DNA of 63,528 nt, the filler included, from Folioceros fuciformis (Eukaryota): NCBI GenBank assembly GCA_049999805.1. It is 8 parts of 8 records of this genome, joined end to end, with 100 filler letters (N's around TTAATTAATTAA, not from the genome) between each part and the next. Parts side by side here need not be neighbours in the genome. Positions count along the whole stretch, not along the records: positions 1 to 3,735 come from JBNGIO010003885.1; 7 more parts are not named here. One strand, 5' to 3'. Below, piece by piece: positions 1-32,875 of the stretch. The stretch's first letter is position 1. Each line of letters starts with the position of its first letter. Position numbers and translations under genes: made by a program. Below the pieces are notes generated by a model, which saw nothing but the letters and a program-made list of their open reading frames with translations, was not told the origin of the DNA and did no database searches.

Positions 1-6
1 CAAACT

Positions 7-2835
7 GTGCATACTGACCTCTGTGGCCCTATGTCCACACGCTCACTTGGTGGTGCCCTGTACTTTATGCACCTTATTGATGACTGGAGTCGGTTTACAG
101 TCACTTATTTTTTAAAGCATAAAAATGAAGCATTCTCTTGCTTCCTTCTGTACCTGGCCTATGCTCAACGCTTCACAGGTCAGAAACTTAAATGCCTCAG
201 AAGTGACAATGGTGGTGAGTTTACCTCCGGCGAATTCATGGAGTTCTGCTCACGGGAGGGCATTCAACGGCAACTTACCGTTCCCTATGAACATGAGCAA
301 AACCCCCTGCCAGAAAATATGAACAAAATCACCCAGGCAGCTGCTAAGGCCATGCTTCACCTTGCCAAGCTTCCTCGCAGCTTTTGGGCCGAGGCAGTTG
401 CAACAGCTGTGTATGTCCAGAACAGGCTGCCCACTCGAGCTTTCCCTGACGCCACTCCCTTCGAAAGGTGGACTGGTGTCAAGCCTCGTGTGGATCACCT
501 TCGGATATGGGGCTGCCCTGCGTATGCACATACACCGGATGAGATCCGACGCAAAATGGACTTCAAAGCCACAAAATATCTATTCATTGGGTATACTGAT
601 GGCATCAAGGGTTACAAACTTTATGATCCATCACAGCGACGCTTCTTACATGCAAGAAACGTCATCTTCGACGAGCAGTTTCTTTTGCAAGCTTCAGGAA
701 AGAATCGTGACGTACCAGGTTTACAACGCCTCACGTCTTCGGAACCTGAGGCAACTGAACTGCCTCTAACTGAACAAGACCAGCCTCTGGTTATCCCTCA
801 AACTGTACCAGCTGTACCAGCTGTACCAGATCAACCAGCAGATGTCTTTCCAGATGACGAGCCTGACCTCACTATTGATGACTCCAATTCTGAGTCTACT
901 CAGCACTCAGAAGATGATCAGCAGGAGGATTATGATAACATGGACGATGATACTCCACCATCTCCTCCCATGGCTGAGGATGAGGTCGAGGCCCATGATG
1001 AAGAACCGGTGAATGAGCCACCGGCTCTTAGAAGGTCGTCTAGGACACACACAACGGACCCAAGTCAGTGGGTCAATAAGCCGTTAAGTTATGAACTGGA
1101 CGAGGCCTACAAACAACAGAATTCCAACCTCACTACTGGTGATAACTCATCTCAGGAGAATACCTCACCTCATGCCTTTGCTGCTCAGGTTTTGCTTGCA
1201 GCACAAGACCTTGGAGAGCCAGCCACACTGAAGGAAGCGCTTTCCTCCCCTGAAGGCAAACTCTGGCAAGCAGGAGTAGACTCAGAGTACCAGTCCCTCA
1301 TTGACAATCAAACTTGGGAACTAGTAGACCTGCCTCAAGGACGCAAGGCATTGACTGGCAAATGGGTATTCAAGAAAAAGTTGAACCCGAATGGATCTGT
1401 GGCCAGATACAAGGCAAGATATGTTGTGCATGGATACAANNNNNNNNNNNNNNNNNNNNNNNNNNNNNNNNNNNNNNNNNNNNNNNNNNNNNNNNNNNNN
1501 NNNNNNNNNNNNNNNNNNNNNNNNNNNNNNNNNNNNNNNTCCGTGAGGATGCTCTTTGCACTCGCTGCAGAATGTAAGCTTGACATCCAGCAGATGGATG
1601 TCAAAACCGCCTTCCTCCATGGCACAATAGACGAAGAAATCTACATCACACAGCCAGAAGGGTACATTAGTAAGAAGGAACCTCACAAGGTATGCAGATT
1701 AAAGAAAAGCCTGTACGGCTTAAAGCAGGCACCACGAGTGTGGTACAAAAAGATTCACGCTTACCTAATTCAGTCAGGTTTCAGTCAGAGTGATGCAGAT
1801 ACCAATGTCTATATTCTTAGACAAGGGAAGGCATTCGCCATTCTAGCATTATACGTTGATGATGCTCTGTTATTCGCAAACTCCCCTGACATAATGAAGA
1901 AGGTCAAAGCCATCCTTACAGCTGAGTTCTCAATGACAGACTTGGGGCAGCTTACCTTCTTTCTGGGCGTACAAATCTGTATTAGTCCAGATAAGGGAAG
2001 TATCTTTTGCCATCAAGCACATTACATCAGGCAAATGTTAGAAAGGTTTCACATGGTAGACTGTAAACCCGCCATTACTCCTATGGCAGCGGGAGAGAAG
2101 TTCTCCACAGCACAAAGCCCAAAGTCAGATGCCGAGAAGCAAGAGATGGAAAAGAAGCCTTACAGCATGTTAACTGGATGCCTAATATGGATTAGCGGAT
2201 GGACCAGGCCTGATGTGTCCCCTGCTACTCGGGTCTTCTCAAGATTCCTGGCGAACCCTGGCAATGCACATTGGACAGGAGTCAAGAGAGTACTGCGTTA
2301 TCTCAAGGGCACACAATACCTCGGCATCAGATATCAATCACAAGGGAAGTTCCCGTTACTTATCTGTTATTCTGATTCCGATTGGGCCAGTGACGAGGAC
2401 TCCAGGCAGTCCATCACTGCAAATTGCACAATTCTGTCTGGAGGAGCTGTCAGCTGGACATCTAAAAAGCAGACAGTAGTGGCACTCTCGAGCACTGAGG
2501 CAGAATACACTGCTGCCACCTCAGCTGCTCAGGAAACTGTGTACAATAGGCGGTTTATGGCCTCAGTAGGGTTTCCACAACCTGGAGCCACTACCATCTT
2601 CTGCGACAATCAATCTGCTATCGCACTATCCAGAAATCCAGTTCACCACTCCAGAACGAGACATATCGCTGTAAAGCAGCACTATATCAGAGAAACCGTG
2701 GAGTCAGGTGAGATAGACCTGGTTTATGTGCCTACAGACCAAAACCTAGCTGACCTCTTTACGAAGGCGCTGCCAAAGGAGCGCCATACTGCACACTGTG
2801 AAGGCTTGGGCCTTGCCGTCAAGGCAAACCCTTGA
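7..2835 (+). CDS. Copia pol polyprotein, partial: integrase, reverse transcriptase, RNase H
   Basis: HTDLCGP and RSDNGGEF (integrase); QMDVKTAFLHG, SLYGLKQAPRVW and YVDD (RT); YSDSDWA, CDNQSAI and ADLFTK (RNase H). No stops; spans one 100-N gap. Confidence 0.95.
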   Translation: MHTDLCGPMSTRSLGGALYFMHLIDDWSRFTVTYFLKHKNEAFSCFLLYLAYAQRFTGQKLKCLRSDNGGEFTSGEFMEFCSREGIQRQLTVPYEHEQNPLPENMNKITQAAAKAMLHLAKLPRSFWAEAVATAVYVQNRLPTRAFPDATPFERWTGVKPRVDHLRIWGCPAYAHTPDEIRRKMDFKATKYLFIGYTDGIKGYKLYDPSQRRFLHARNVIFDEQFLLQASGKNRDVPGLQRLTSSEPEATELPLTEQDQPLVIPQTVPAVPAVPDQPADVFPDDEPDLTIDDSNSESTQHSEDDQQEDYDNMDDDTPPSPPMAEDEVEAHDEEPVNEPPALRRSSRTHTTDPSQWVNKPLSYELDEAYKQQNSNLTTGDNSSQENTSPHAFAAQVLLAAQDLGEPATLKEALSSPEGKLWQAGVDSEYQSLIDNQTWELVDLPQGRKALTGKWVFKKKLNPNGSVARYKARYVVHGYXXXXXXXXXXXXXXXXXXXXXXXXXXXXXXXXXXSVRMLFALAAECKLDIQQMDVKTAFLHGTIDEEIYITQPEGYISKKEPHKVCRLKKSLYGLKQAPRVWYKKIHAYLIQSGFSQSDADTNVYILRQGKAFAILALYVDDALLFANSPDIMKKVKAILTAEFSMTDLGQLTFFLGVQICISPDKGSIFCHQAHYIRQMLERFHMVDCKPAITPMAAGEKFSTAQSPKSDAEKQEMEKKPYSMLTGCLIWISGWTRPDVSPATRVFSRFLANPGNAHWTGVKRVLRYLKGTQYLGIRYQSQGKFPLLICYSDSDWASDEDSRQSITANCTILSGGAVSWTSKKQTVVALSSTEAEYTAATSAAQETVYNRRFMASVGFPQPGATTIFCDNQSAIALSRNPVHHSRTRHIAVKQHYIRETVESGEIDLVYVPTDQNLADLFTKALPKERHTAHCEGLGLAVKANP

Positions 2836-2923
2836 CCTCCACACAATTACATTTGCACGCACTCACTCACAAGGCTAGCGCTTGTCACAAACAGTGGGGG
2901 CGGATGAGCGCACAGTAGGATAG

Positions 2924-3340
2924 CTATTCTTGCTCTCCTCTGTGTGCTACAGGCAAGAACAACTCTGCACCTGCCATCTCCGCCGCCACTTCAGGGCTTC
3001 TCCAAGAAGGAGCGTACCTGAAGACAAGGTTGCCTTCCGCGTCACAGCATGCAGAATTTAAAATCATGGCAAGACCTGGACATGGCGAAAGCTTGCGGAA
3101 GTCCTCCTCGTCAGAAGTAGGAGACAACCCCTTGAGCTGCCGAAGCCGAGCATGCAACACTCTCATTCTCTGGCGCAGCCGTCCTTCCCTGCTGAGCTCA
3201 GGTTTGCCAGCCATCTGAAGCCTCGAACTCCTCCCGGAAAATCTTCTCTGCTCCCAGGTGGCCACACAGACCATCAGCGCAAGCAAGATCAGAAGAACAA
3301 AGCTGCCGTCCAGGTGCGAGATCCCGCCAACACTCAGCAT
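2924..3340 (-). CDS. Antisense accessory ORF of copia family A (138 aa): N-terminal hydrophobic helix, then a basic amphipathic segment
   Basis: ATG-to-TAG ORF conserved in copy 2, with synonymous and conservative substitutions. Confidence 0.65.
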   Translation of the reverse strand: MLSVGGISHLDGSFVLLILLALMVCVATWEQRRFSGRSSRLQMAGKPELSREGRLRQRMRVLHARLRQLKGLSPTSDEEDFRKLSPCPGLAMILNSACCDAEGNLVFRYAPSWRSPEVAAEMAGAELFLPVAHRGEQE

Positions 3341-3447
3341 AGCTACAATTCGATCTGCAGACGAAGAGTATGCGCAAGTCGAGAGCTGGCAGGATTACGG
3401 CGCAAGCGAAGCAATTCACGACGACGGGATTACAGTCTAAGTGGGGG

Positions 3448-3688
3448 TAGCGAGAAACGGTGCCCTAACTAGCCCGTATCCCGCCGTCCTAGATAGGTTT
3501 AGGTCATTAATAAATAGCCATATATATACTTAAATATATTAAGTGCACGAACAGGTGCACCGAAGCGTCAACGGTTAACCGCCATGCCGTTTCACTTGAC
3601 ACGGCCACATAAGGGCCTCACACGCACATTCATTTTTAATCTGAACACAAGCTTTCTCTCTACGCTGCGTGCTATCGATCCTACGCTA
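3448..3688 (+). repeat. 3' LTR of family A copy 1 (~241 bp), non-canonical TAGCG...CGCTA termini
   Basis: Starts directly after the PPT. 5-bp terminal inverted repeat. Aligns to 19341-19590. Confidence 0.8.
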
Positions 3689-3735
3689 GAGGGTATTAGG
3701 GCTTGCTCTCGATGGTACCTCAAACCAAGGCCCGC

Positions 3736-3835
3736 NNNNNNNNNNNNNNNNNNNNNNNNNNNNNNNNNNNNNNNNNNNNTTAATTAATTAANNNNNNNNN
3801 NNNNNNNNNNNNNNNNNNNNNNNNNNNNNNNNNNN
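3736..3835. other. Artificial scaffold linker; also at 9657-9756, 17110-17209, 22835-22934, 26624-26723, 32776-32875, 42780-42879
   Basis: Identical N-run + TTAATTAATTAA + N-run, 100 nt, seven times. TTAATTAATTAA gives stops in all six frames. Confidence 0.97.
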
Positions 3836-4811
3836 GTGTTCTTCCACCGCTGATCATGCCGATACGTGTATAATTATATTAGGGGATAGCCTAGAGGAGG
3901 AGTCCTTGGAGGACGAGGCTGTCAAGAAAAGACTAAAGAAGAAGGAGCAAGAGGTGGATGGCAGCGCCAGCAGCAGGACTGCAGATTGGGGAGGAAATCA
4001 AGACAGGGCAGGAGGGGAACGGGGCAAGAAATCAGCGGGAAGGAGAAGAAGGCAGGCCTGGCCCTGCATCGGCCAAATCCTACAGCTCGTCTCAGCCTCC
4101 TCTCCTGCACACATTCGATCCCATCACCCGTCGATCCCTCCTCCTGCCTGCAAGAAGAATAGGCACAAAAAGATGGGAAGGGAGATGAAAGGGAAGGGGA
4201 AGAAGAAGAAGAGGGGGCAAGAAGGGAATGGAGGAGGAAGNNNNNNNNNNNNNNNNNNNNNNNNNNNNNNNNNNNNNNNNNNNNNNNNNNNNNNNNNNNN
4301 NNNNNNNNNNNNNNNNNNNNNNNNNNNNNNNNNNNNNNNNTCTAGCTAGGGCATGGCCTCCATGGCCGTTCATGCCAGCCAAGCAATTAGCCAGCCTATC
4401 GTCAGACCTTGACCCCTGACACTGACGTACCTAGATACCCATTCCTATGTTCAAACCATTATTTTATTATTTTTATCATTTAATATTATTATATTATTAT
4501 ATTATTTAATACTATATATCTTTAATTAATAATAAACTAATCACCAGACCTTGACTCAAACTTTCCCAACCCTATGGCCTGGTACCGAACCTAAACCTTC
4601 CCAGGTCTGGGACCAAACCTATACCCACTCGTATAACCAAACCAACTATTTCCTAGTCAATTAACCTAATTAGCACAAAGAAAAATAGGAAAAATAACCA
4701 GAAAATAAAGGAAAATTAGGGAAAATAAGTTGAAAAAGAAAACCAAACCATACCACTATTAACCCTTTTTCAACCAAAACAAACTCCTACCCCAAACTTT
4801 GGAGGTTCACA
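3836..4811. mobile_element. Fragment of an LTR-type repeat ending ...GGTTCACA
   Basis: 4393-4640 recurs inverted at 9427-9656. The same GGTTCACA terminus is at 14139-14146. Abuts an interrupted copia LTR. Confidence 0.5.
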
Positions 4812-4999
4812 GAGCTCAAGGGGGTATTTATACCCTCTAGAAGAGCTTCCTAGGAAGCTTCACAAGAAGCGCACAGGAAGCTGCGCAAGAAGCTTCTTAC
4901 AGATTAGCTTAAGCTAATCTAAACTAATGGTACTTAACTAGACACTAATCTTAGACTAAACACATTAGTCTAAGTACATTGGGCTTTATTAACCCTACA
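4812..4999 (-). repeat. Partial LTR (starts TGTAGGG) of the copia family at 32876-33637, inserted into the integrase of element B
   Basis: Reverse complement matches 33402-33637. It truncates ORF 4995-5804. Confidence 0.85.
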
Positions 5000-7900
5000 A
5001 CAGCATGCTTCTAACCATGCCCATGAACATTTGATTTTTCCTCTCTGCAACCCTGTTCTGTTGTTGTGTGTAGGGTACAGAAAGCTGTCTTGTTATGCCA
5101 TATTCCTCAAAGAGTTCATCAAACTGTCGATTTGTGAACTCTCTGCCATTATCAGTTTGAAAACATTTCACCAATTTACTCGTTTGCCTTTGAACCATCA
5201 TGATCCAGGTGGAGATGGTTTCAAATACATCACTCTTCAATCTGAGGGGAAAGGTCCATGTGTAGCGTGAAAATTCATCCGTCAGCGTTAAGTAATATTC
5301 AGCACCTCCAAGAGACTTGACAAGTAACTTTCCATCTATGTCTGCATGCACCAGCTCCAATACTTGCTTTGCTCGTGTAGCTTGTTTATTTTTAAATGGA
5401 AGTTCTTTCTGCTTGGACAGAATACAAGAACTACAAGGTGCACGTTGTTCAAAGCATGGTGGCAGACTCTCACGATAGAAGGACGATTTAGACATCAAAT
5501 CCAGTTTGAATCTGTTCACATGACCCAATCTAGCGTGCCACACTTGAGCCTGGACATCCAAAGCTGTAAGTAACGCCCTAAACTTGGACTTTTGAATGGG
5601 CACTAGTTGATATAGATCATTGACGAGGATAGCTTTACCAACATGACTTTCTGGATCAGACAATGAGTAGATGTAACAGGTTTGGTCTTCAAACCTAAAG
5701 CCATACATATGGCTTTCTGTAATGGCTCTAATAGACAGCAAATTCTTACCCATTTCAGGAACATAAAGAATATCCTGAAGATGCAGTGTGGAGCCATCAA
5801 GCAAAGGTATGTCAGCCTCACTAGTTCCTTTACCTCTACACCACGTGAATCTCCTACAAAAACTGACAAAGATGTCTTCTATTTGTGAAAGGTGGTGAAC
5901 ATTTGTTGATTATTGCAAACATGAGTAGTAGCTCCTAAGTCAATATACCAACGCCGAGAGTTCTCGATGGTAAAAGTCAAGCAAACTGTAAGGATTGTAC
6001 TGCTACTTCATGCAGGTTGCTGTTGAGCAGGTGACAATTTATGTTCCTCAGTAGAAACATGAGCCTCAGATCTTGCATCCTTCTTGGGCTCACCAGCCTC
6101 TTTCTTCTAGCAGTCACATTCTTAGTGCCCCGGGATCTGGCACTAGTTACAACTACCTTGGCGATTGGTGGCTGAAGAAGAAGAACCAGGAGGACCAGAT
6201 AAGTTTTGTCCTTTCTTGTTCTTATTATCCTTCCCCTTCCAAAGTCCTTGTCCCTTTGCGGCAAACAGGACTTTCTCACCACGAAGTCTTGAACCTGGAT
6301 GAGCTCGCTCACGACTTTGCTCCTCTTGCAGGAGTGCCCGGATGATTTCATTTAGATTCAGAGTTGAAGGCTGTCCACTCGCTGAAGCCTTATATGCATC
6401 ACGCAGATTGGCATTCTGACTTGAGATAAATGTCTGGAAGGAAGAAGGAAGGCTGGACAGCGGTTGAGCAGTCATCTCCACGTCCATTATCTTGGTACCC
6501 AACACAACAAGTTGTGCTTGCAGGTGCCTCAACTTAGTGATATGTGCTCCAACTAGTTCCCCCTCCTTCAGCCTGAGACTGTGAAAGTCATTCCTGACAT
6601 TAATCAAGGTGTAGATATTTTGAACCTGGTCAATCTCCAAAAGTTGATTCCAAACTACTTCAGCTGACTCCAGGAAATCAGCTTCAGTAATAGTTGTTTC
6701 GTCCAAGCCAGATAGCAAAATTGCAAAGGCAATTTTATTGCCCTTCTTCCATTTTGCTTTCTCATCTGCTGACGGTTGTACTATTGCTGCAGCAGGGACC
6801 AGGAATGGATTGGGAATTGAGCCATCCACATATTCCCAAACGTTTCTAGCGTCCAAGTTTGCCTTCATACGAGCTTTCCAACTCTCAAAGCGAAGTGGCT
6901 TACCATCAAATCGATCTTTTTCCTTGATTTCTCCAGAGTAGAGTGATCCTAGAGATGTAGACTGAGGTACTATACCTGTCGACATAGTAGGAATACTAAG
7001 TGTTGTCAATTGTGCAGGATGTGGTGCAGGAAGGGATGGATTGGAGTAGAGCCACGAAAAGGGAGAGCTCTCAGAGTCATTGTCTAGATCAAACCACGAC
7101 ATAACCAACAGAGTTCCCAGGAAGTGAAACGATACTAGCCCAGACACGAATGGGTAAGTGCTGTTTTAAGTAAATCCTAAGAAAAGTCCTGTGAACTTGA
7201 AACAAGAAAAACCTAACTGAAAATTGACACCGGCTCATTTCAATGTGATAGGATGCCAAGACTACTCAGTGGGTAATAAGAGGGGAGCCAATGCACCTCA
7301 CAAATGAGGATCTTGGAACTGGAATCAAACAACAAACAGGCATGACTTGCTATGAGCCTTATGTCCAGGCACAGGTATCCCTTGAAAACTACCTCGCACC
7401 CTTTCAGATATGAAAGCCGTTAGGGTGTGATTCCACAGTGTTGACACCTTCTCGCGCAGGCACCAAGGATTCAAGGTACAATGCAGCAACTAGTCGAGCT
7501 GTAGAGATTGAAGCAGACGGTTGAAGAACCTTGAGTTGAGTAACTTGATTCGCCAACGCAACAACTTCAGTTTGGAGTATCTCAACAGTAGCAAAAATTT
7601 GGCTTAGCCTTAATTGAAATTGTGAGAATAGCTGAATCACAAGCGTCTCAAGGCCATTAAATCGCTAAGAAAAGTTGACTGAAGAGGAGCGTCCAGATAA
7701 GTTGAGATAACTCTCAAATATCTCATTTTCTTCAGACTTGTCTGCCCACTGATCTCTTATTCTCCTTGATTACAGAGAATTTTGACTATGCCGTTTATTG
7801 AACTCTAGGCGCCTTGCTGCAACGCGACTGGAAAACGAGTAGGGCGAGGCAACAAACTGTCTCCTCCTTCTGTTCAGGCGTGAGCGTCCTTGAATCCATG

Positions 7901-9420: not shown

Positions 9421-10354
9421 ATTAGCTTGGTTATAAGAGTGGGTATAGGTTTGGTCCCAGACCTGGGAAGGTTTAGGTTCGGTACCAGGCCATAGGGTTG
9501 GGTGATTAGTTTAATATTAATTAAAGATATATAATATTAAATGATTAAATAATAATATAATAATATTAAATAATAAAAATAATATAATAATGGTTTGAAC
9601 ATAGGAACGGGTATCTGGGTATGTCAGTGTCAGGGGTCAGGGTCTGACGATAGGCTNNNNNNNNNNNNNNNNNNNNNNNNNNNNNNNNNNNNNNNNNNNN
9701 TTAATTAATTAANNNNNNNNNNNNNNNNNNNNNNNNNNNNNNNNNNNNNNNNNNNNCTCCCAGCTTTAGATCCCCCCTCCATCCTGCTAGTCAAGATCCA
9801 TGTCCCGGCAAAACCACCATCTAGCGCCCTTGGATATCACCTTGCAAGTTGGAGATGACATCCCACTATTCCTGTCAACATAACCATCACTAGGCTTCCC
9901 ACCCACTAGCAGCACACCTATGCTAGTCTTTCAGCCTACAAGCAACCAGGCTTGCTACTAATGGATGGAAAGTCGAGTGCCGCTTATGTCCTATATCCGG
10001 ATGGGGTGGTATCCCTCAATTTCGTCCGCACGATTTCTCTTGGCAGCCTTCACCTCCGACCCCTGTCCAGGCCACTGTTACCCCCTTGCTCGAAACCAGA
10101 CCCAATCCGGAGCCAGACTCGAGCTGTTTTTATCCCTTCGTCGGAGTTCACTTTTTAGTCTCTCCTCTGCTGCCTGTTGCAATAGCCTCCCTCTCTCGTT
10201 AGCTTTCCATTGCTCCTTAATAATTTCCTCCTGTCGATAGTCTATGATTTTGGCCTACATCAACTTCCTTGCATGAGCATCTTCCAGTCCAGGCACATAC
10301 TCTCCCCTTAACTTCTGCAGAGATCTCTATCAACGCATGGATAATTGTCTCAGC

Positions 10355-11189: not shown

Positions 11190-14146
11190 CTTGGTTACTG
11201 GCCTCCAATTGGTTACTGGCCTCCTGCTCTGCTCATCCGCTCTCTGCCTTGTTAGCCAATGTGTCTGGCCTCCTGCTCTGCTCATCCGCTCTCTGCCTTG
11301 TTAGCCAATGTGTCCGGCCCCGTTCGGCACACCCGTGGATCCAGCGCCGCTGCCTAATCCATTCCGGTCCCGATTCGGCTAGCCCATCGATTAGACGTAT
11401 GGCCAGATTCGGCCTGCCAATCGATCAGCCACCACCATCCAGTCAAATCACCCGAGTCCACTGGCTAGCCACCCCAGCCGCTACTGCCAACCGCCTGGCA
11501 GATTCAGCCAGGCAACCAGCCTGGCCGACTGGTTGCCTACTGAATCCACTGCCCAGAAGCCAGGCTAGCCAGCCTGGCGACTTGGCTCCTGCAGCCAGGC
11601 CGGCGGCTGGCTTCCGGATCCAGCCTCGGCCTACATTCGGCCCGCTCATTTGGCCTCCAACTCCGACTAGCCCGGCCGCTGCATGCACTGCCAAAACGGC
11701 CTGGCTGCGTACCTGGCCATCTTCAGTTGCAGGCAGGCTGCATCCAGGCTGATCCCGTCCAATCCGCCAGGCCTCCCACTAGATTCACGCGCGTCTTGGT
11801 TTTTGGGCTTGATTCACCACCATCGGCCCAGCCAACTTGCTCTCGCCTACCAGATATCTGGCCAGACCCGTCAAGCACCTGCCCGGCCGCCTGGACCTTG
11901 TCGTCACCCATCAGCCAGGCCGCCTTCCTGGCCTGACTGCTCCCCGGCTTGCAGGCAGCCCACCAGTCTGGCTGCCCAGCCTAACATCCCGCCATGACCA
12001 ACCAGCCAGCCCGGCTGGTTGAGCAGCCAAGCCGAACTGGCTTTGATGTCCTGCTTCGGTCCAGCCCCTGGTCGTCTGGCTGCTTGCAGCCAGCAGCCTG
12101 ATCGACTGGCTGGCCGTTGACGACCCGCTCAGCTCCTGCTCCCCGACTCGAGGCCACCCGGGCCGATTCCTGCAAGCCAGCTCGCATGGCTCAGCCCGAG
12201 CCAACTTGGATCTCAGTCGGCCAGCTTGGACGCTCCTTGGACACAACATCACCCCCTTGCCCATCCAGCCTGCGCCAGGCGGCTGCTGCCTGGCTGGATC
12301 TATCTGCAGGTCACCTGCTAGCTGCCTTCCCGCGCCGGCTGGACCAACGCAGCCAGCGTGCAAGCCGGCCCCTGGTTGATCCGCCTCGGCCTCATGTCCC
12401 GACCTGCCTCCAGCACTCACCTTCTGACCGGTTCCAAGCCAGCCAGCCGCCAGGCCTGTCCCCACCGCCCAAGAACAGGCCTCCAGATTCCACCAACAGC
12501 CATCCTGCCCAGTTTGGCCGCACCGAGCTGGATCAGCCACCGACGGCTCGGCTCCAAAGTCGGGCAGCCAGGCCGCCATCGGGCCTGACCTGCGGATCTG
12601 CCAGCAGCCAGGCCATTGTCACCCGGCCTGGCTGATGTGCCGCCATCTGCCCTTACCGAGTCGCTAGACGCCCAACTGCCGGGCTGCAGGGTCGGCCGGC
12701 CACAGCCCCAGCCAATTGCCCGGCCTTCGAATCCGGCCCTGGCCAGATCCGCCAGCCAGAGTGTCCGCCGGCCTGCCCTACGCCGGTCGCCGGCCTGGCT
12801 CAGCATCGGCCAACCACACCGCTCCCAGCCTGCTGCGCCGGAGCTTGCACAGGCCTGACTGGCAACAGCCCGGCCTCCAGTCGTCACCTTCCGAGCCTGC
12901 CTACCTGATCTCCAGCGCTGGACCCGGCCTGGATTCTCCTCAGCTGGCCTGCCTACACTCCTCTTCCCCGACCAGGCGGCTGCCTGGCTGCTGCTAGCCG
13001 GCCTGGGCTGCCGGCTAGGCCCCTCAATAGCCAGCCTAGCTTCTTCAGGCCCAAGCAGCCCAGGCCGCCTCGATCAGCCCGACCGAACTTGGGTCTCAGC
13101 CGACCGGCCTACTCTTGGCCTCGCCGCGCTCCAGCCTTGGACTTATCCACCTCTCGACTGTCGGGCTCTGCTCCGCTGCCTGCACTGTCGGCCCTCAACA
13201 GCTGGACAAGAGCAGGATAGCTAGCCAGGGCGTGCTCCACCCGGCCTCACTGGTCCGCCAGTAACCAGTCGACTTAGCCTGGCTGCGCCGGGCTGGACTA
13301 GCCACAGCCAGCCCAGCTCTAGAGTCGGGCAGCCAGCCCGGCTCCAGAGTCGGGCAGCCAGCCCGGCTCCAGGGTCGGGCAGCCAGCCCGCCACCGGGGC
13401 TGGCCTGCAAATCTGCCCTAGCTGTTTGCACTGTCGATCCAACACCACCACCTGCCTCTTGTCGAGTCCAGTCGGCCAGTGCCTTGATTCCACCGTGAAT
13501 CCATCCTGGCCTGTTCCTGCAAGCCAAGCAGCCTTCCCGCTCCGCCTCGACCAGTTCCCCCAGCCCAGATCCATGCCCGGCCTGGTTTCGGGCCCAATTC
13601 GCCACCACCGGCCCGGCTAGGCTGAGCCCGAGGCATGCCAACTTGGGTCCAGCGCCGCCCCTGCCCCGACACGACTTGCTTCAACCAAGCAGGATGTTGT
13701 GCCTAGCCGAGACCAGCCAAAGATAGCGAGCAACCCAGCCATTGGTCAAGCCAGTCCCGCTTGCATCCCCTGGCCTTCATCACCCACATCCAGTCCGGCT
13801 AGCAAGCAAGAGTGCGCCACAGGACCTGCCTTGCTGGTTGTCTGCTTATGCTATGATGTCGTTGACAGCGCTTCCCCCGGAGCCCTCGTTCTACCCTGTC
13901 CCTGATCAGGCATACCCCGACCCTTCGACTCCTCGTCGTTGTCACTGCCTGGCCGCTCCAGGCAGCTCCACTCAAGAGTCTAGGTTCCACACACATCCGG
14001 ACACCCTAACTAGAGGGACGTAACCCGTGTCCTACCTACCACACACCCTATCTAGACCCTACTCACTAACCCACTAATCTAACCTAATCTCCGAGAGATT
14101 CCCAAAAAAAGAAACCCCACCATTTTCTAAGGGTTTAGGGTTCACA
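11190..14146. mobile_element. GC-rich CCAGCC/GGCTGG-rich repeat-element segment ending GGTTCACA, inserted into copia element C
   Basis: Degenerate short repeats, including a 25-bp unit x3 at 13321-13390. Abrupt junction into the copia zinc-knuckle codons (H)MEKDC. Confidence 0.45.
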
Positions 14147-16943
14147 CATGGAAAAGGATTGTTATAAGAAAAAGAATGGCGAGCCTAGAAAGGAGGCCAC
14201 ACCTGAAGCTCATGTTGCTGTGAAGAAGCCATCTTCCACAACACCTCCGGCTCTTACTATATGTTTGGCTTCATTAAAGTCAACAAACCCAAATTGGTAC
14301 TTGGATAGTGAAGCCACTTCACACATCTATCATGATAAACAATCATATGAGTCCTATTCGCCAGCTACACGACATCAGACTATCTTACTGGGCGATGACC
14401 ATAACCTCCCTATTTTAGGTGAGCGTTCAGTTAAACTCAGATGTTCTTCAAGTCACACTCTCCTTCTTTCCAAAGTCCTTCATGTACCATCCATGTGTAA
14501 AAATTTAGTGTCAGCTGCTAGTTTATGTACAGAACATAGTATTCAGGTTATTTTAGATGCAGATAATTGTATCCTTACTTACTCTCCTAGTGAGTCCCTC
14601 AACATCTGCACATGCACTATAGAGGACGGGTTACATAAACTGTCCGTCAAAGTGGGACCCTCACATGATAGAATTAATGTAGCTTCCCAGAACTCTTGTC
14701 ACCTCCAATACAACTGTACTTTGGCTTTGTAGATTAGGACATCCTAATAGCCAACAGCTTATACAAATGTCTAGGGGAAACCTTTATAGAAACCCTTCCC
14801 TTACTAAGATAGAACCATTATCATGGTGTGAAGCTTGTGTCCTCACTAAAAGACATCAAGCACCTTTCCAAAATAACTCTCCCCAGCAGGCTAAGGCACC
14901 CCTAGAGTTAATTCACACTGACATTTGTGGCCCAATTTCCGCACCATCCTTCAGTGGTTGCAGATACTTAATTACTTTCATTGACGATTTCTCCCGCTTT
15001 ACCACAACATACATCCTCAAGCACAAAAGTGAAGCTTTTAAGTACTTTAAGGATTATATGATGTGGGCGGAAAGACTTATAGAGAAGAAACTCAAAACCC
15101 TCCGTTCCGATAATGCAGGCGAGTTTATATCAAATGCTTTTACTGATTTTTGTCGAGCTCAAGGTATTGCTCAACAACTTATAGTAGTATACACACCTCA
15201 ACAAAATGGCATAGCAAAGAATAAGAGATGACATGTTGCTTGCTCTCCCAAGCTAGTTTAATTAAACCATATTGGGCAGAAGCAATTATAACAGCAACAT
15301 ATCTCATTAATAGACTACCAACCTCAGCAATTAAAGGTATGACACCTTATTAAGCATTTACTAGAAGAAAGCCTTCCATTGACCACCTTTGCGTTTTTTG
15401 TTGTACGGCATATGTTTATATTCCTAAACCACAACGCAAGAAGTTAGATGATAAGGCTGTGAAATATACTTTTATTGGCTATATAGAAGGTATCAAAGGA
15501 TACAAATTATTTGATCCAGCTACTAGGAGACTCATTTACACCGCAGTGTTACTTTTCATGAGTCTCCCATGTTATCTCCAGTGAGTTCAAGATCTCTTGT
15601 TTTTGTTCTAGACGACAATCATCTATCCTCATCCTTTGATGATGATGAATTTATTAGCCTTCATTACTCTCCTTCCTCTCCTTTGGTTGAACCTATATTG
15701 CAGGAGGAGGAGGAGCCACCTTCTCCACGACGACCCACGACTCTAGATCCATACATGGAAATTCCTCAACACCTTGACGATATTCATGATATCCCGGATG
15801 ATGACTTTTCCAAGCCTGAATATTTGGATGCAGATCAGCCAGTTCCCCCTATAGTTGAACTAGCTCCTGAAGCATCTGAAGAAGAAGAAAACTCTTTAGA
15901 ACAAGTCGTCAACGAAGATGCACAAGCTGCACCAAGGTACAACCTAAGAACCAGACCTACTGTCTCAGGGCCTGCAAGAAAGAAGGAACCACCATTATGA
16001 TACCTTACCACCTTTGATGATCCCTCCTCACCTTTCTCTCATTTTCATCAATCTGTTTATAAAGCTACAGTTGATCCTGAAGAGCCACTAACCATCAAGC
16101 AAGCTTTTTCCTCTCTTGAGAAGGATTTATGGAAAGCTAGTGGACTCTGAGTATGACTCCCTCGTTAAAAACTCTACATGGGAATTAGTCAAACCACCAA
16201 AAGGGAGAGAAATAGTTGGGAGCAAATGGGTCTTCAAAATCAAACGTAAGGGCGATGGTGCCATTGAGAGATATAAGGCAAAACTAGTAGCCAAAGGTTT
16301 TACCCAAATACCGGGTTTAGATTACATACCCTGGGCTACCTATGCTCTAGTAGCAAAGTTTGCCTCTCTAAGAATTATAATTGCCTTATATGCTCAACAT
16401 GATTTACATCTTCATATGATGGATGTCAAAACTGCTTATTTGCAAGGACGCATTCAAGAAGAAATATGCATGAAGCAACCTGAGGGATATGAGGTCAAAG
16501 GCAAGGAAAATATGGTATGCCGATTAATAAACGGTCTCTATGGCCTAAAACAATATGGAAAGGAATGGAACAAGGATATACATAACAAGCTCATCAAGTA
16601 TGGCTTTATACGAAGCAAAGCTGATGCAAGCTTGTATATATTGAAGACAAAACAATATACAATTTATCTTTTACTTTGTGTGGATGACTTATTTTTAGCA
16701 TCATCCTCACTCTCCCACCTGGCTGAAATTAAAGGCTTGGTTAAGAAGTCACTATGAAATGACAAACTTGGGAGAACTCAATTATGCTCTTGGCGTGAAT
16801 ATTATAAGGCATAGAGGTAACAAATTCATTTCCTTACGTCAGACAAAATATATAAAGGAAAGTTTAGCCAAGTTTGAACTTGAGGATGCTAAACCGGCAG
16901 CCACACCATTTCCTAGTGGCACAAGGCTTATTTTAGATATGAG
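14147..16943 (+). pseudogene. Degenerate Ty1/copia element C pol (zinc-knuckle end, protease, integrase, RT)
   Basis: WYLDSEATSH, IHTDICGP, RSDNAGEF, MDVKTAYL, LYGLKQ and CVDD, with several stops and frameshifts. Confidence 0.92.
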
Positions 16944-17109
16944 TGTGGAGGCAAAACCCCGGGCACTGATTGCCAATGGGTTCCACCTTTAGTGGCCACA
17001 CTTATCCCACTGTCGTTGAGACATTGGGTTTCGTTCCCACGAAGGAGCGATGGGGTTCCTTGCTGCTGTGGATGGAGGGTCGGACTTGATCAACTCGATG
17101 ATGGATTCG
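16944..17109. mobile_element. Terminus of a young LTR-type element (TGTGGAGGCAAAACCCC...) inserted in element C RT
   Basis: Nearly identical to 22461 onward; begins with TG at a sharp junction. Confidence 0.8.
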
Positions 17110-17209
17110 NNNNNNNNNNNNNNNNNNNNNNNNNNNNNNNNNNNNNNNNNNNNTTAATTAATTAANNNNNNNNNNNNNNNNNNNNNNNNNNNNNNNNNNN
17201 NNNNNNNNN

Positions 17210-17545
17210 GAGGAGATCATTAGGGCAAGCACCGGAGGAGATCATTAGGGCAAGCAGCGGAGGAGATCATTAGGGCAAGCAGCGGAGGAGATCATTAGGG
17301 CAAGCAGCGGAGGAGATCATTAGGGCAAGCAGCGGAGGAGATAATTAGGGCAAGCACCGGAGGAGATAATTAGGGCCAGCACGGAACAACCACCATTAGG
17401 GAAAGCATGGGACAACTGCCATTAGGGCAAGCATGTGACAACCACCATAAGGGCAAGCATGGGACGACCACCATTAGGGCAAGCATCGAACATAGGGCAA
17501 GGATTAGGGCAACCTACAAACACGGGCAAGGATTAGGGCAACTTA
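17210..17545 (+). repeat. 25-bp minisatellite (GGAGGAGATCATTAGGGCAAGCAGC), ~7 good copies then decayed ones
   Basis: Tandem copies visible. Confidence 0.9.
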
Positions 17546-17585
17546 CTAACACTAGTATACCTGGCTTTACTTACAAATCACTTCC

Positions 17586-17745
17586 TCCCTCTTACACGAC
17601 TCAGCACTAGGCTCCTTCTTACATGACTCAGCACTAGGCTCCCTCTTACACGACTCAGCACTAGGCTCCCTCTTACACGACTCAGCACTAAGCTCCCTCT
17701 TACACGACTCAGCACTAAGCTCCCTCTTACACGACTCAGCGACTC
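17586..17745 (+). repeat. 27-bp minisatellite (CTCCCTCTTACACGACTCAGCACTAGG), ~6 copies
   Basis: Tandem copies visible. Confidence 0.92.
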
Positions 17746-19340
17746 ATCACTAGGCTCCAAGTAGCCTACCGTCCATTGACGACTCGCAGACCACCTCCTC
17801 TAGGTGTTGCTCTTTATTCAAAAGAGTCTGGCGATCTGCGCCCTACTGGCTACTGCCCAGACTCCATCTTACAAGCTTGCTCTTCAAACCCTCCATAGCT
17901 ATGCCTCAAGGCTAGACTTCCCACTGTTTACCCTTGTCTCTCTGTTCTCTCTGTGTATCAATGTATAAGAGTATGTCCTCAAGACCCTAACACTGGCCTA
18001 TTTATACTCCACAGCTAAGCCACTGCTAAAGCCGGGAATGATACACACCACTCATCTCAGAATACTAGTGGTCATTATAACTCCATCCTTCTTAGGAGGT
18101 TTTGCCTGGAACACCTGAAGCAAGAAGCATACTTGCTTCTTCATCAAGACAGCTCTAGATTTAGCTTTCACCTTTCTACTTTTAACTTTCACCTTGTTTC
18201 ACTTATGCCATTACTCTCTCCCCCACTAGGAGAAAGTCATTGTCCTCAATGACTTGTAGTGTAACATGAGATCATCCATGATCCTTGTTGCACATCTTGA
18301 TGTGAAACCCAGACAGGATTTGCAAAATCATGAAGCCTTACTAGATACTTTAGAACATTACCACGGATAGAAGGCACTTCTCTTTCTGCTAGGAATTCAA
18401 CAATCTCTTGCAAACTATGGTTATATTGAACCGGGATAACATAGTCTTTCTTGTTCATGTCTTCATTCTCTTTTGAAATCACAACGGTTTCAGCAAAGAG
18501 ACATGAAACATGGAGAGCAACATGTGGAGCTAGCCAATCTCCCTCTAGATTACTGCTCACGGGAGTTGCTTAATAGGGTTGTAAGAAAGGGCAAAGGGGT
18601 GTTGATCCTGCCCCTTTGCTTGCTTTTTTTTCCTTCTCTTCTTCACTCATAAGCTGAGGGCAAAGAGCAAGGTAGGTGCCTCNNNNNNNNNNNNNNNNNN
18701 NNNNNNNNNNNNNNNNNNNNNNNNNNNNNNNNNNNNNNNNNNNNNNNNNNNNNNNNNNNNNNNNNNNNNNNNNNNNNNNNNNCTCCTACTCTTCCTTTTT
18801 TCCTTCTCGGGTTGCAGGTGATCTGGCAGTTGTAGGAGTGGTGAGTGAGGGTGGCCTATCAGCTGATGGAGGGGCTGTGAGCAAAGCTGTGAGTCAAGGG
18901 TAGGAACCTAGTTGCAAGAGTCACGAGAGTTGAGGAGGTTTTCTCTTTGCCAAATAGAAGTGTTGTCTACAATGATAGGACTTGGGGCCCAACCAGTGAA
19001 ACATGAAGACAAGGAAGAGACTAGCTAATGAGGTGACAACACCAGAGGACGAGGAGGATAGTTGCAGCAAGCAGAAGATCTGAAGACTCCCTCCCAAGGA
19101 CATAGCTATCGTAGGAGTGAGGTCGGGCCCCACTGTTTAGACTTAGTTTATGTTGGCTTGTGGTGATTGGGCCTAAATGGTAGGCCTATTAAGACTTCTG
19201 ACACCAGGTCATTTGCTAGGCAAGCCTAGATTAGTGAGCCAAGAGGTTCATTGATTTAGTTGCCTTTTCATAGTATAAACCTAAAGAGAGAGAGCGTGAG
19301 GAGAGAGGGGAGCTCCTATCGAAGGATTGCTAGAGGAGCC

Positions 19341-22300
19341 TAGCGTAGGATCGGTAGCACACGGCGTAGAGAGAAAGCTTAGAAAATCAGAATAGCCACT
19401 TGTGAATGTGGGTGTAAGGCCATAAGAGGCCGTGTCATGTGAACCGGTACGGCGGTTGACTGTTAACGTTACAACTGTGCACCTGTTCGTGCACTTATAT
19501 AATAAATATATATGTGTAACTATTCCCTTAACGACCTAAACTATGCATGACGCCGGGATACGGGCTAGTTAAGGGCAACCTATCTCGCTACCCCCACTTA
19601 GACTGTAATCCCGCCGTCGTGAACCTCACATACGCCGTAATCCGCGCCGTCTCTCAGCTTGCGCATACTCTCCGTCTGCAGATCAAGTTGTAGCTATGCT
19701 GAGTGTTGGCGGAATTTCGCACTTGGACGGCAGCTTTATCCTACTGCTCTTGCTTGGGCTGCTAGTCTGTGTCGCCACCTGGGAGCAGAAAAGATTTTCC
19801 GGGAGGAGTTCAAGGCTCCAGAAGGCTGGCAGACTTGAGCTTGGCAGGGAGGAAAGGCTGCGCCACAGGATGAGGACGTTGCATGCTCAGCTCCGGCAGC
19901 TCAAGGGATTGTCTCCTGCTTCTTGTCTTTAGGTATGCTTCGTTTTGGAGATGCCCTGAGGTGGCGGCGGAGATGGCAGGCGCCTGGTTGTTTTGTTTGC
20001 CTGTAGCACACAAAGGAAAGCAAGCATAGCTGCCCTGTTGTGCGCCCATCCACCCCCACTGATTGTGACAAGCGCTAACCTTGTGAGTGAGTGCGTGCAT
20101 GTGCAGTTGTGTGCAGGTCAAGGGTTTGTCTTGACTACAAGGCCCAAACCTTCACAGTGCGCGGTATGGCGCTCCTTAGGCAGTGGTTTTGTGAACAGGT
20201 CAGCAAGGTTCTGGTCTGTAGGTACGTAGACCAGGTCTATCTCACTTGAGTCCACGGTTTCTCTGATGTAGTGCTGCTTCACTGCAATATGTCTTGTTCT
20301 GGAGTGGTGAACTGGATTTTTGGATAGGGCGATGGCCGATTGATTGTCACAGTAGATGGTTGTGGCTCCAGGTTGTGGAAACCCTACAGAGGCCATAAAG
20401 TGCCTGTTGTAGACTGTTTCCTGAGCAGCTGAGGTTGCGGCTGTGTATTCAGCCTCAGTGCTGGAGAGGGCCACCACTGTCTGCTTCTTAGATGTCCAGC
20501 TGATTGCTCCTCCAAACAGAATGGTGCAGTTTGCAGTAATCGATTGCCTGGAGTCCTCGTCACTGGCCTAGTCGGAGTCAGAATAACAGATAAGTAGCGG
20601 GAACTTCCCTTGCGATTTGTATCTGATGCTGAGATATTGTGTGCCCTTGAGGTAACGCAGCACCCTCTTAACTCCTGTCCAGTGTGCATTGCCAGGATTT
20701 GCCAGGAACCGCGAGAAGATGCGAGTAGCAGGGGACACATCAGGTCTAGTCCATCCACTAATCCATATTAGACATCCAATTAACATGTTGTAAGGCTTCT
20801 TTTCCATCTCTTGCTTTTCAGCATCCGTCTTTGGACTTTGTTCTGTAGAGAATTTCTCTCCCACAGCCATGGGAGTGATGGCGGGCTTACAGTCTACCAT
20901 CATGAACCTCTCTAGCATTTGCCTTATATAATGAGCCTGGTGACAGAGTATACTTCCCTTATCTGGACTAATGAATATCTATACGCCTAGAAAGAAGGTG
21001 AGCGGACCCAAGTCCGTCATAGAGAATTCAGCAGTAAGAATAGACTTAACCTTCTTCATTATGTCAGGGGAGTTAGCAAATATCAATGCATCATCAACAT
21101 ATAGTGCTAGAATGGCAAATGTCTGCCCTTCTCTAAGGATGTACACATTTGTGTCTGCATCACTCTGACTGAATCCTGACTGGATCAGGTAGGCGTGTAT
21201 CTTCTTATACCATACTCTTGGTGCCTGTTTCAGGCCATACAGGCTCTTTTTTAACCTGCATACTTTATGAGGTTCTTTCTTACTAACATATCCTTCTGGC
21301 TGTGTGATATACATCTCTTCATCTATGGTGCCATGGAGGAAAGCGGTTTTGACATCCATCTGATGAATGTCAAGCTTACATTCTGCAGCGAGTGCAAAGA
21401 GCATCCTTATAGAAGACGTCCTTACAACAGGTGAGAAGGTTTCGTGAAAGTCAAGTCCTTCGACTTGCTTGTATCCATGCACAACGTATCTTGCCTTATA
21501 TCTGGCCACTGTTCCATCTAGGTTCAACTTTTTCTTGAACACCCACTTGCCTGTGAGTGCCTTGCGTCCTGGAGGCAGGTCTACCAGCTCCCAAGTCTAA
21601 TTGTCGATGAGGGACTGGTACTCTGAGTCCACGCCTGCGTTCCATGGAGCTTTGGCCTTCAGGGGAGGAAAGTGCTTCCTTTAGTGTGGCTGGCTCTCCA
21701 AGATCATGTGCTGCAAGCAGGGCCTGAGCAACATAGGCATGAGGTGAGGCATTCTTCTTTGATGTGTTGTCACTGGTAGTGAGATTAGAAGTTTGCTACC
21801 TGTAGGCCTCGTCCAGTTCGTAGCTTAATGGCTTGTTAGTCCACTGACTTGGATCAGTTGGATGTGTTCTAGACGATCTTCTAGGAGCTGGGGGCTCATA
21901 TGTTGGTGCCTCATCATGCTCCTCGACCTCTTCCTCAGCTACAGGAGGAGATGGTGGAGTGTCATCGTCCATGTCATCATAATCCTCCTGCTGCTCATTC
22001 TCGGAGTGTTGACTAGTGTCAGAGTGAGAGTCATCTGCAGTGAGGTTAGGTTCATCGTCTGGGAAAGCATCTGCTGATTGAACTGGAAAAACTGAAGCTA
22101 CTGGCACAGACTGAGAGGTAACAAGAGGCACATCATGTTCAGTTGACCACAGTTCAGTTGCATCTTGTTCAGAGGACGTAAGGCGTTGTAGACCAGGTAC
22201 GTCTCTGTCCTTTCCTGAAGCTTGCAGTAGAAACTGCTCGTCAAAGATGACGTTTCTTGCATGTAAGAACCGTTTCCGAGATGGATCATAGAGCTTGTAG

Positions 22301-22460
22301 CCCTTGATACCATCCGTGTAACCAATGAAGAGATGTTTGGTAGCCTTAAAGTCCATTTTACGTCGGATCTCATCGGGTGTATGTGCATACGCAGGGCAGC
22401 CCCATATCCGAAGATGGTCCACACGAGGCTTGACACCAGTCCATCGTTCAAAAGGAGTGG
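19341..22460 (-). mobile_element. Ty1/copia family A, copy 2 (disabled pol 20118-22460, PPT 19591-19599, LTR 19341-19590)
   Basis: Collinear with 452-3688. Pol fragments match copy 1 but carry stops and frameshifts. Confidence 0.95.
19696..20029 (+). pseudogene. Antisense accessory ORF of family A copy 2, frameshifted by an 86-nt deletion
   Basis: MLSVGGISHLDGSFILLLLLGLLVCVATWEQ..., then in another frame LVFRYASFWRCPEVAAEMAGAWLFCLPVAHKGKQA*. Confidence 0.7.
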
Positions 22461-22834
22461 TGTGGAGGCAAAACCCCGGGCACCGATTGCCAATGGGTTC
22501 CACCTTTAGTGGCCACACTTATCCCACTGTCGTTGAGACATTGGGTTTCGTTCCCACGAAGGAGCGATGGGGTTCCTTGCTGCTGTGGATGGAGGGTCGG
22601 ACTTGATCAACTCGATGATGGATTCGAGGGCTCCCCTCCAGCTCCGATCAGGCGTAGGACAGGCCTCGCTGTCCGGCGGTCAGCTGCACCTCTCTCGGTG
22701 CCCACAAACTCACTCCAGCCACTACAACGACCCTAACCTCTCAGATCTGCGACTTCCCTCACTCACTTCACTCACTCTTTCACTCCAGCACCAACACCAG
22801 CAACTACCAGCAACGACACCACTACCTTCTACAC
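22461..22834. mobile_element. Second copy of the TGTGGAGG-terminus element, inserted in the integrase of family A copy 2
   Basis: Matches 16944-17109. The junction falls inside the TPFERW-coding region. Confidence 0.8.
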
Positions 22835-23989
22835 NNNNNNNNNNNNNNNNNNNNNNNNNNNNNNNNNNNNNNNNNNNNTTAATTAATTAANNNNNNNNNN
22901 NNNNNNNNNNNNNNNNNNNNNNNNNNNNNNNNNNAATTCCAAGACTCAGTTAGCGGGGTCGAATTCTTCTTTCGTGCAAGCTTCTGAAGGTGGGTAGGCA
23001 CGCGCAGTGAGTGATGAGGAGATGGAGACTAAACTCCGTCACGTCTTTCACAGAAGACATACGTGCCGGTGATGGGAGCGTTGACCAGGACCCATTGCAC
23101 AGCGGGCACAGAGGCAGATGCTGCTGTCTCTAGACATCGACAACACAAATAGAGCCACGAGCGCAGTGGAATGCGGTCTGTGATTCGCCCTTCCTCAGAA
23201 GCTCTTGCCCAGTCCCAGGACGGTTCACTGCACGAACTGATGTTTCCTGACGCGCAGACAGCGCGTCGAGAGAGAAGATGCTGCACAGCGCGTCGAGAGA
23301 GAAGATGCCGCACCTCTCGGGGCGGGCACTCCGTGCGTGAAGGCGGAAACGGAGTGCAGCGCCTCGAGAGAGGGAGGCATTGAGTCTTCAGGCCGCGCCT
23401 GAGCACATGCATATGTGCGTGCACGCGGTGATCCATTGCCGGTATCTGGTCCATTGAGATCCAAATTTTTCAAGGGAATTTTTGGAAACCTGTGCCCATG
23501 CTGCCAATGGTAATCCTGGTGAAGACCAACAAAATGCTGATGTTGAGGAAGAACTCGTAATCGAAGCTCATATACTAGGATCTGAGGTGGTAATTCGACA
23601 ACTTGGTGCTGAAAACGGTAATGTTGATTAAAACCATGCTTGTCAATAGGTGATAAATTGCATTACCCATATGCATTTGGATAACCTGCTTGATGTTGCC
23701 GTACATAACCGGCAAGCATCTCCCATTCAATCCAGAAACAAGAGTCAAGATAATAGTGCATCAGAAATTCCAAATTTCTGATTGTTACCTAATCCTACAC
23801 CAGCAATGTTGTCTGGTCCTTTGGATATGACGACTTCTAGGTCGAGTGTTATAAATATTAATAATAATAGTATTTAGGCCTACCAGGGGCACGGTTCGTC
23901 TTAGGTCAGGATACCAACCAGCATAAGTGAAACGGTTACAACCACATAGCGTCTCGCTCGTGACACTTGATTCTGCACAAAGGTGCAAA

Positions 23990-26623: not shown

Positions 26624-27277
26624 NNNNNNNNNNNNNNNNNNNNNNNNNNNNNNNNNNNNNNNNNNNNTTAATTAATTAANNNNNNNNNNNNNNNNNNNNN
26701 NNNNNNNNNNNNNNNNNNNNNNNGCGGCAGTGATGCTAACATAACCCGATCACCCGATCAGATGCCAGATGTTTTCCACGTGCAGGGATGGAGATCGCAG
26801 CACCAAAGCGCGCCATACCCTGATCCAGATTTCCAGCAAACCTATTGCCGCGATGCAGTTTTCTGGTTTGGCAGGGTACACGGATTGCGGCGTTTCGTGG
26901 CCCGGTGTGAAGTTCTTGGCAGGAGCGTCATAGATGTTTGAGATCGATTGCAAATTCTGAGGCGCTCACGGTCTGAGGATTCAGGACATTATAACGCTGA
27001 TTTGGAGCCGCGCAGGGGAGCAGATGGCAGCCCCATCGCGGCGCTGTCGGCACCACTGCGGCCATGACCAGTTTTGATTTTCACCACTTCGGAGTGTTTA
27101 CAACCAGGTTTTGTAGCCGGGCGGTGGATGGATGCGCCTCGCGGCCGGTGTCACATGCTGGGCAGGAGTGCCTTCGATTTTCGTGCTTCATCACGATTGC
27201 TTGGAGCCATGGCCTGCGGCGTGTGAAAGACACAGCAAGTTGTCAATGTTGCTATAATTGATGATGCTGAGACGCGG

Positions 27278-27712: not shown

Positions 27713-27728
27713 TATTTGAATATTGGAC

Positions 27729-32665: not shown

Positions 32666-32875
32666 CCCTTCGTGCCTCGTGCGCTCTCGCTCCCGTGCTC
32701 TCTCTCCCACAATCCACACAATGCGAAAGTATGTACCCGCAGTGGGAAGAGAAGAGGAAGGTAGCAGGCTGCTAANNNNNNNNNNNNNNNNNNNNNNNNN
32801 NNNNNNNNNNNNNNNNNNNTTAATTAATTAANNNNNNNNNNNNNNNNNNNNNNNNNNNNNNNNNNNNNNNNNNNN

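Follow-up and report, generated by a model that had tools for sequence, protein, structure and literature searches.

A Copia retrotransposon of Folioceros fuciformis carries a 138-codon open reading frame (ORF) on the strand opposite to pol, in the spacer that separates pol from the polypurine tract and 3' LTR. Its substitution pattern and its distant protein relatives suggest that the frame is probably a true accessory gene of the family and encodes a protein. Between the two copies of the element that we compared, nonsynonymous sites of the frame changed about three times less than synonymous sites.

The element and its two copies

The window analysed here, 63,528 nucleotides in all, consists of eight unplaced contigs chained by seven linkers. 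Because the contigs were joined artificially, adjacency across linkers carries no meaning.

3736-3835, 9657-9756, 17110-17209, 22835-22934, 26624-26723, 32776-32875 and 42780-42879: linkers N44-TTAATTAATTAA-N44, with a stop in all six frames

Runs of 100 and of 10 N elsewhere in the window are separate from these linkers and resemble ordinary scaffold gaps. The two copies of the element sit on different contigs, and no further copy or relative of it was found within the window. Copy 1 is laid out as follows.

1-2835 (+): Copia pol, copy 1, with integrase, an SH3-like domain, reverse transcriptase (RT) and part of RNase H, in a 944-codon open frame from the window's first base
2836-2923 (no strand assigned): spacer of 88 bp between the two stops, of pol and of the antisense ORF; the copies share 85% identity here
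2924-3340 (-): putative antisense accessory ORF of 138 aa, ATG at 3340-3338 and TAG at 2926-2924
3341-3438 (-): presumed leader of the antisense message
3439-3460 (+): candidate polypurine tract, recognised by position and composition, present in both copies and followed by TG
3461-3735 (+): start of the 3' LTR; the contig ends at 3735 and homology with copy 2 extends to 3689

Integrase precedes an RVT_2-type RT in a single polyprotein frame, which is the Ty1/copia arrangement, and the Pfam matches are to rve (4.8e-10, residues 7-87), SH3_retrovirus (4.5e-26, residues 148-216) and RVT_2 (2.9e-63, residues 426-686). A gap of 100 N interrupts this pol at 1440-1539. On the opposite strand, between the pol stop (2835) and the 3' LTR, the antisense ORF lies where the frames known as aORF-3R (or eORF-3'R) are found. 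The sequence-only reading had described here a 138-aa ORF antisense to pol, with a hydrophobic stretch followed by an Arg-rich helix. Both hold: the frame runs from ATG to stop at 2924-3340 (-), the maximum of the Kyte-Doolittle scale over 19 residues (KD19) is 2.38 at residues 10-28, and AF2 places a helix at residues 12-41.

On the antisense strand no ATG occurs from about 3505 to the ORF's own, and the leader is ATG-free in both copies. Over this leader the two copies share 86.6% identity, compared with 73% over the LTR. An AT-rich stretch at about 3497-3548 of the LTR is TATA-like on both strands and lies some 160-200 bases upstream of the ORF's ATG. At the other end, the spacer at 2836-2923 is presumed to be the 3' untranslated part of the antisense message; its differences between the copies show no codon periodicity (5, 3 and 5 by position modulo 3). 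Both copies are truncated by contig ends, so that of the terminal features just the beginning of the 3' LTR and the candidate polypurine tract are visible; neither a 5' LTR nor a second LTR of the family was found within the window.

Copy 2 is a decayed partner.

19696-20029 (+): ORF remnant with the same ATG; the homologous stop TAG is at 20027-20029
20118-22518 (-): decayed pol in at least four open pieces; the contig ends at 22834

The earlier description had this second copy keeping the same ATG and the same stop position. The ATG and the homologous TAG are indeed kept, but the frame between them is broken: 86 bp are missing at about 19923 (3027-3112 in copy-1 coordinates), which shifts the frame at codon 79. 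Reading from the ATG gives 78 residues before a premature stop at 19930-19932, and there is no intact second ORF. Past the deletion, the original frame gains one in-frame codon and runs on as far as the homologous stop; this one whole codon is the only indel inside the ORF between the copies besides the 86-bp deletion. Besides a 4-base insertion and a frame change, the pol of copy 2 contains two in-frame stops. The ORF is open where pol is open, in copy 1, and broken, by a single deletion, where pol is broken, in copy 2.

Tandem repeats with units of 25-26 bases and of 27 bases occupy 17185-17500 and 17558-17767, at the start of copy 2's contig. The 110 bases at 17000-17109, at a contig end, are 100% identical to those at 22517-22626, close to where the next contig ends; an overlap left unmerged, or a repeat at contig ends, is the probable cause. 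The remainder of the window holds Copia elements of other families and several host genes.

4995-7165 (-): Copia element, other family
14139-16757 (+): Copia element, other family
27720-32356 (+): Copia element, other family, with gag, integrase and RVT_2, nearly open, with an N100 gap inside
44764-47766 (+): intronless PPR protein gene of 1000 codons with an E motif
49363-50286 (+): EF-hand protein gene
55441-56214 (-): pectate-lyase fragment

The host genes point to a land plant as the source of the window. An open frame of 666 codons at 52443-54443 (+) has no Pfam match at E ≤ 0.001. By tblastn, none of the three other Copia elements (4995-7165, 14139-16757 and 27720-32356) contains a relative of the antisense ORF.

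Substitution patterns in and around the frame

The codon-by-codon comparison concerns a single pair of copies, about 86% identical over the ORF, and covers 109-110 codons. In the frame of the ORF we counted 22.5 synonymous and 23.5 nonsynonymous differences (pS 0.287, pN 0.095), that is a dN/dS of 0.28. The other two antisense frames gave 1.22 and 1.32, two of the sense frames gave 0.87 and 0.89, and the sense frame that shares its third codon positions with the ORF gave 0.32. When the 46 substitutions were re-placed at random, the mean number of synonymous changes was 13.9-14.0, and the observed 22.5 was reached or exceeded in 46 of 20,000 trials, with or without CpG context. The same permutation gave 81 of 4000 for the sense frame with shared third positions and 2790-3936 of 4000 for the remaining four frames. 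The purifying selection on an accessory protein that had been proposed is thus supported by this one pair (0.28 against 0.87-1.32 in four frames). So is the finer detail from which the proposal started, since of the first 33 codons ten differ between the copies, five synonymously and five conservatively, exactly as claimed. The proposal would have been weakened by stronger conservation in the sense frame with shared third positions; that frame is no better conserved (0.32 against 0.28) and contains stops.

The constraint on the ORF is weaker than that on pol, for which the same two copies give a dS of 0.71 and a dN/dS of 0.086. This low value for pol implies that most of the divergence accrued in active, selected lineages. 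Synonymous divergence in the ORF (0.287) is close to the divergence of the LTR (0.27) and of pol third positions (0.31-0.32), and so the ORF stretch cannot simply be of younger age than the other parts of the element. The flanks of the ORF, at 2836-2923 and 3341-3440, differ by 13-15% between the copies, which is roughly half of what the LTR and the third positions of pol show. Since these flanks lie outside the ORF and are nevertheless conserved, some of the constraint in the region is not protein-coding; it is possible that they hold a leader, a promoter or signals beside the polypurine tract.

Further copies come from sequencing runs of four organisms, whose DNA contigs were aligned at 80% likeness across pol, the ORF and the LTR. 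The stretch is covered by 48, 10, 226 and 142 contig pieces in these four runs. The stretch itself occurs in both window copies, one of which has the frame intact, and also in the runs of all four organisms. One contig from organism B spans 2503-3323 with 62 differences and free of gaps. Among 12 of the 39 indels, one falls in the ORF, a 1-base loss at 2957 within the last 11 codons, seven fall at 3390-3412, two in the LTR, and two form a compensating pair in pol. The best-supported 40 of 414 variants, which are a biased sample, include 12 synonymous and 2 nonsynonymous changes in pol against 8 and 8 in the ORF; none of these 16 ORF variants is a stop. Many copies in two of the organisms diverge from the window 5' of 2970, and the last 15 residues or so of the protein therefore vary between subfamilies.

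The predicted protein and its relatives

Two parts of the protein can be told apart.

3257-3313 (-): hydrophobic N-terminal helix, residues 10-28 (KD19 2.38), with no K/R before it and four in the 15 residues after it
3002-3220 (-): conserved C-terminal domain, residues 41-113, delimited by a 7-sequence alignment and hhalign

Residues 10-28 would form a membrane anchor or possibly a cleaved signal peptide. From the charge pattern, the positive-inside rule predicts a single-pass protein whose N-terminus faces the outside or the lumen, with the conserved domain on the cytosolic side. The domain consists, in order, of a helix with L-H-x-x-L, a G-L-x-P motif, a C-P turn, a short helix ending in S/T-A, and G-x-L-x-F-x-Y-A-P-W. 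Two AF2 models were of low confidence overall (pLDDT 64.0 and 66.8) and their helices alone are used here. Both contain a long, confident N-terminal helix (in one model residues 12-41, with pLDDT blocks of 87-93), followed by a helix that covers the L-H..L motif and by a third, short one. A two-copy complex prediction of the protein scored 0.00 and was counted neither way.

Searches for relatives returned a handful of small proteins. Among about 5.8 billion clustered proteins the sole match was P0001 (100 aa, 69% identity, E 9.4e-31), whose frame stays open through the segment that is deleted in copy 2. A full HMMER pass over 1.8 billion representatives returned five proteins at E ≤ 0.001 (P0002 to P0006), of which P0004, P0005 and P0006 are 106-120 aa long with E values of 7e-5 to 4e-4 among these 1.8 billion proteins. 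P0007 and P0008 were added by a profile search. P0003, an 883-aa repeat protein with an E value of 9.5e-8, was rejected as a relative, its match being one short repeated motif of low complexity. All seven relatives kept are unnamed singletons; they come from run assemblies, where their contigs measure 0.9-4.7 kb, and no named or annotated protein matched among about 15 billion. The discovery of P0001 and P0002 is subject to ascertainment, because the gene caller reports open frames only.

Where residues were compared by eye, P0002 departs from P0001 through changes of P to S, L or F, of A to V, of H to Y, of T to I and of L to F, with Q and R unchanged. Substitutions of this kind are what changes of C to T on the coding strand would produce. 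Going by its protein letters, P0002 has the look of an assembly made from bisulfite-treated reads whose CG and CAG cytosines had been protected; if so, the family would be methylated there.

Over the whole-family alignment the relatives are only 23-32% identical, and they have a C-terminal domain of about 70 residues in common. An alignment of seven sequences leaves L62, H63, L66, L72, C87, A97 and G103 invariant, and hhalign joins the group of the window ORF to the group of P0005-7 with a probability of 98% (E 1.8e-13, 70 columns). The N-terminal hydrophobic helix is present in five of seven members (KD19 1.7-3.0), with four K/R in the next 15 residues against 0-2 before it. Of the others, P0001 begins past the helix and P0008, which looks like a decayed relative or copy of P0004, is without it. 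Members of the family are accordingly built of an N-terminal hydrophobic helix (5/7) and a basic stretch, followed by a C-terminal domain that carries the invariant L-H..L, L, C, A and G. Neutral DNA would be saturated at such a distance, so that the similarity of these relatives needs selection on the protein. Judged by these alignments, the window ORF together with P0001, P0002 and P0004-P0008 is a new family of small proteins of about 100-140 aa, whose relatives are known as protein sequences.

No Pfam family, PF04195 included, matched the ORF (E up to 1) or any of the seven members. Among PDB sequences the ORF protein had no match (best E 1.4), Foldseek against the PDB gave no fold match (best E 5.5), and in the ESM Atlas the ORF and P0006 had no match, with scores under 0.8. 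No longer protein bearing the domain occurred among 8000 scored candidates, which is weak evidence, and no relatives of the ORF protein were present in the scanned metagenome contigs or in the scanned viral contigs.

Alternatives, possible role and known systems

Four other explanations of the conserved stretch can be weighed against a coding accessory gene. The coding frame could instead belong to the sense strand, where it would be a short extra ORF downstream of pol of the kind found in SIRE, with the antisense frame mirroring its third positions. Its low dN/dS (0.32) and its permutation result (81 of 4000) are what such a frame would give, and the choice of strand therefore rests on stops. 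The sequence-only reading had counted two sense-frame stops in copy 1; one, at 3216, is within the bounds of the ORF, while the second is just outside, at about 2916. The frame with shared third positions is closed by the former in copy 1 and by stops in copy 2. A change of 3147 C>T, present in all covering depth in X4, X6 and X8, three other organisms' runs, creates a further stop in it, and in copy 1 all three sense frames are closed within 2924-3340. We regard a sense-strand gene as barely credible. A second alternative, which we find improbable, is an ORF that arose by chance in a spacer kept conserved by non-coding features, for example polypurine-tract signals, a structure or packaging signal in the genomic RNA, or a promoter. 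An ORF of at least 138 codons arose in 97 of 5000 dinucleotide shuffles of 2836-3460, and the frame stayed free of new stops in 7218 of 20,000 random-substitution trials (36%), so that openness alone is weak evidence for a gene. The flanks match the ORF in conservation (85-87% against 86%), and raw differences by codon position in the ORF (12, 12 and 22; chi-square about 4.4 with 2 d.f.) are only mildly skewed. Non-coding constraint, however, yields no synonymous excess confined to a single frame such as that seen in 46 of 20,000 trials, Rfam has no family matching 2700-3735 at E up to 1, and proteins that are 23-32% identical, with a common helix, basic stretch and domain, would be left unexplained.

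Two further explanations concern the nature of the product and its origin. Antisense RNA could be the working product, pairing with genomic RNA and feeding small-RNA silencing or the control of copy number; the ORF would then be incidental or weakly used. Regulatory antisense transcripts are discussed for LTR elements in the accessible text of one paper (PMC7264820), and control factors of copy number encoded by elements are mentioned in a passage of another paper (PMC11624286). A message running past the ORF's stop would overlap the 3' end of pol, and the conserved flanks are consistent with a conserved transcript. This explanation does not predict the frame-specific synonymous excess or the conservation of protein after DNA similarity has been lost. 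RNA and protein roles are not exclusive, and as a replacement for a protein role we give it little credence. Capture of a host gene for a small membrane protein by transduction, with P0004-P0008 as host genes, concerns the origin of the ORF and is compatible with a present role in the element; we think it unlikely. Host-sequence capture is one of the origins discussed for extra ORFs, as far as the accessible text goes (PMC7264820). P0004-P0008 are known as proteins alone and come from contigs of about 0.9-1.5 kb, a length that transcripts might have. A host gene would sit poorly with seven relatives that are all unnamed singletons, with no named or annotated match among about 15 billion proteins, and, as weaker evidence, with a domain found in no longer protein. 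P0008, moreover, resembles a helix-less decayed copy of P0004, as is typical of repeats. Captured genes are usually present in one or few copies according to the same text (PMC7264820), against the many copies in four organisms.

Returning to a protein-coding accessory gene, the antisense message would begin in or beside the 3' LTR, where the AT-rich TATA region may act as a promoter, and would terminate inside the 3' end of pol. The protein would be anchored in an internal membrane, most likely the ER, from which its cytosolic domain would bind a partner, which could be a host factor or, from the element itself, Gag, its particle or its RNA. Such binding might help or tune the replication of the element, and a protein that aided replication would account for the retention of the ORF in active lineages. 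The antisense RNA itself may additionally act against the sense RNA. Partner binding and the tuning of replication are the weakest steps of this scheme. That the protein is a membrane tether for the element's own particles is possible, though the odds are against it. A bolder reading, which we hold to be quite unlikely, is that of an old transposon-borne family of small ER-anchored proteins, antisense in several distantly related plant Copia lineages, of which the window ORF would be the first member to be seen. On the model of small hydrophobic proteins in plant viruses, these would gather element RNA or particles at membranes, and either aid cell-to-cell passage towards reproductive tissue or blunt the RNA silencing of the host.

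Among the extra frames of retroelements, the one characteristic of Copia is the sense ORF of SIRE, and HIV-1 ASP is a hydrophobic, membrane-associated antisense protein. A SIRE env-like ORF is a sense frame of several hundred codons, and the window ORF is not of this kind. The env-like ORFs of SIRE and Athila are also extra ORFs behind pol, and membrane helices are an env-like feature, but the accessible text describes them as sense, long and heterogeneous, unlike the antisense frame of 138 codons found here (PMC7264820, PMC6317226, PMC11728184). An extra ORF was reported in 74% of SIRE elements, in 19 unrelated groups (PMC6317226, in its accessible part).

Gypsy elements have a recognised class of antisense extra ORFs located between pol and the 3' LTR, represented by gene23 of Grande, by RIRE2 and by Retand, and these ORFs are kept across copies and species (accessible parts of PMC7264820, PMC11963269 and PMC6317226). 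The place and antisense orientation of these aORF-3R (eORF-3'R) frames are the same as here. As far as the same texts go, however, they belong to Gypsy elements with about 2.9-6.6 kb from pol to LTR and exceed 600 bp, whereas the present element is a Copia with a spacer of about 0.6 kb and an ORF of 138 codons. The Gypsy antisense ORFs described are mostly PF04195 (Transposase_28, Retand) and predicted to be DNA-binding or nuclear (PMC11963269, in part), while the window ORF has no Pfam match and is predicted to be membrane-anchored. Similar in topology is aORF(-) of the sunflower Athila 14, for which the accessible text gives one predicted TM helix, an N-terminus outside, a cytoplasmic C-terminus and the ER as location, as predicted here (PMC11728184). 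It is nevertheless set apart by its description there: the element is a Gypsy, and the helix is in the middle of the protein and not N-terminal. No Pfam family links the two.

Outside plants, HBZ of HTLV-1 and APH-2 of HTLV-2 are minus-strand genes with a promoter in or near the 3' LTR, according to the accessible parts of two papers (PMC7264820, PMC11963269); a start in or near the 3' LTR is what we presume here. Those two proteins are described as nuclear regulators (PMC11963269, in part), unlike the predicted membrane protein of the window, for which no sequence relation to solved proteins was found. We found no description of an antisense ORF in a Copia element in the literature outside subscription journals. 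A large plant survey counted extra ORFs from 250 codons upwards, with 582 in Copia in 45 groups, going by the accessible part of its text, and a gene of 138 codons would therefore be missed by it (PMC6317226).

What is new relative to the known antisense extra ORFs is most likely the combination of a Copia host instead of a Gypsy one, a short frame, a predicted membrane anchor and a new protein family. To our knowledge, Copia elements are usually taken to encode gag and pol only. The signal of selection, from one pair of copies, and the distant relatives imply that compact Copia elements can carry accessory proteins, and short transposon genes may be a class that is systematically missed. If the reading as an old ER-anchored family were true, it would give Copia a virus-like accessory function beyond gag and pol. 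The predicted membrane anchor would in turn offer a handle on the cellular site of element replication or on the element's dealings with its host.
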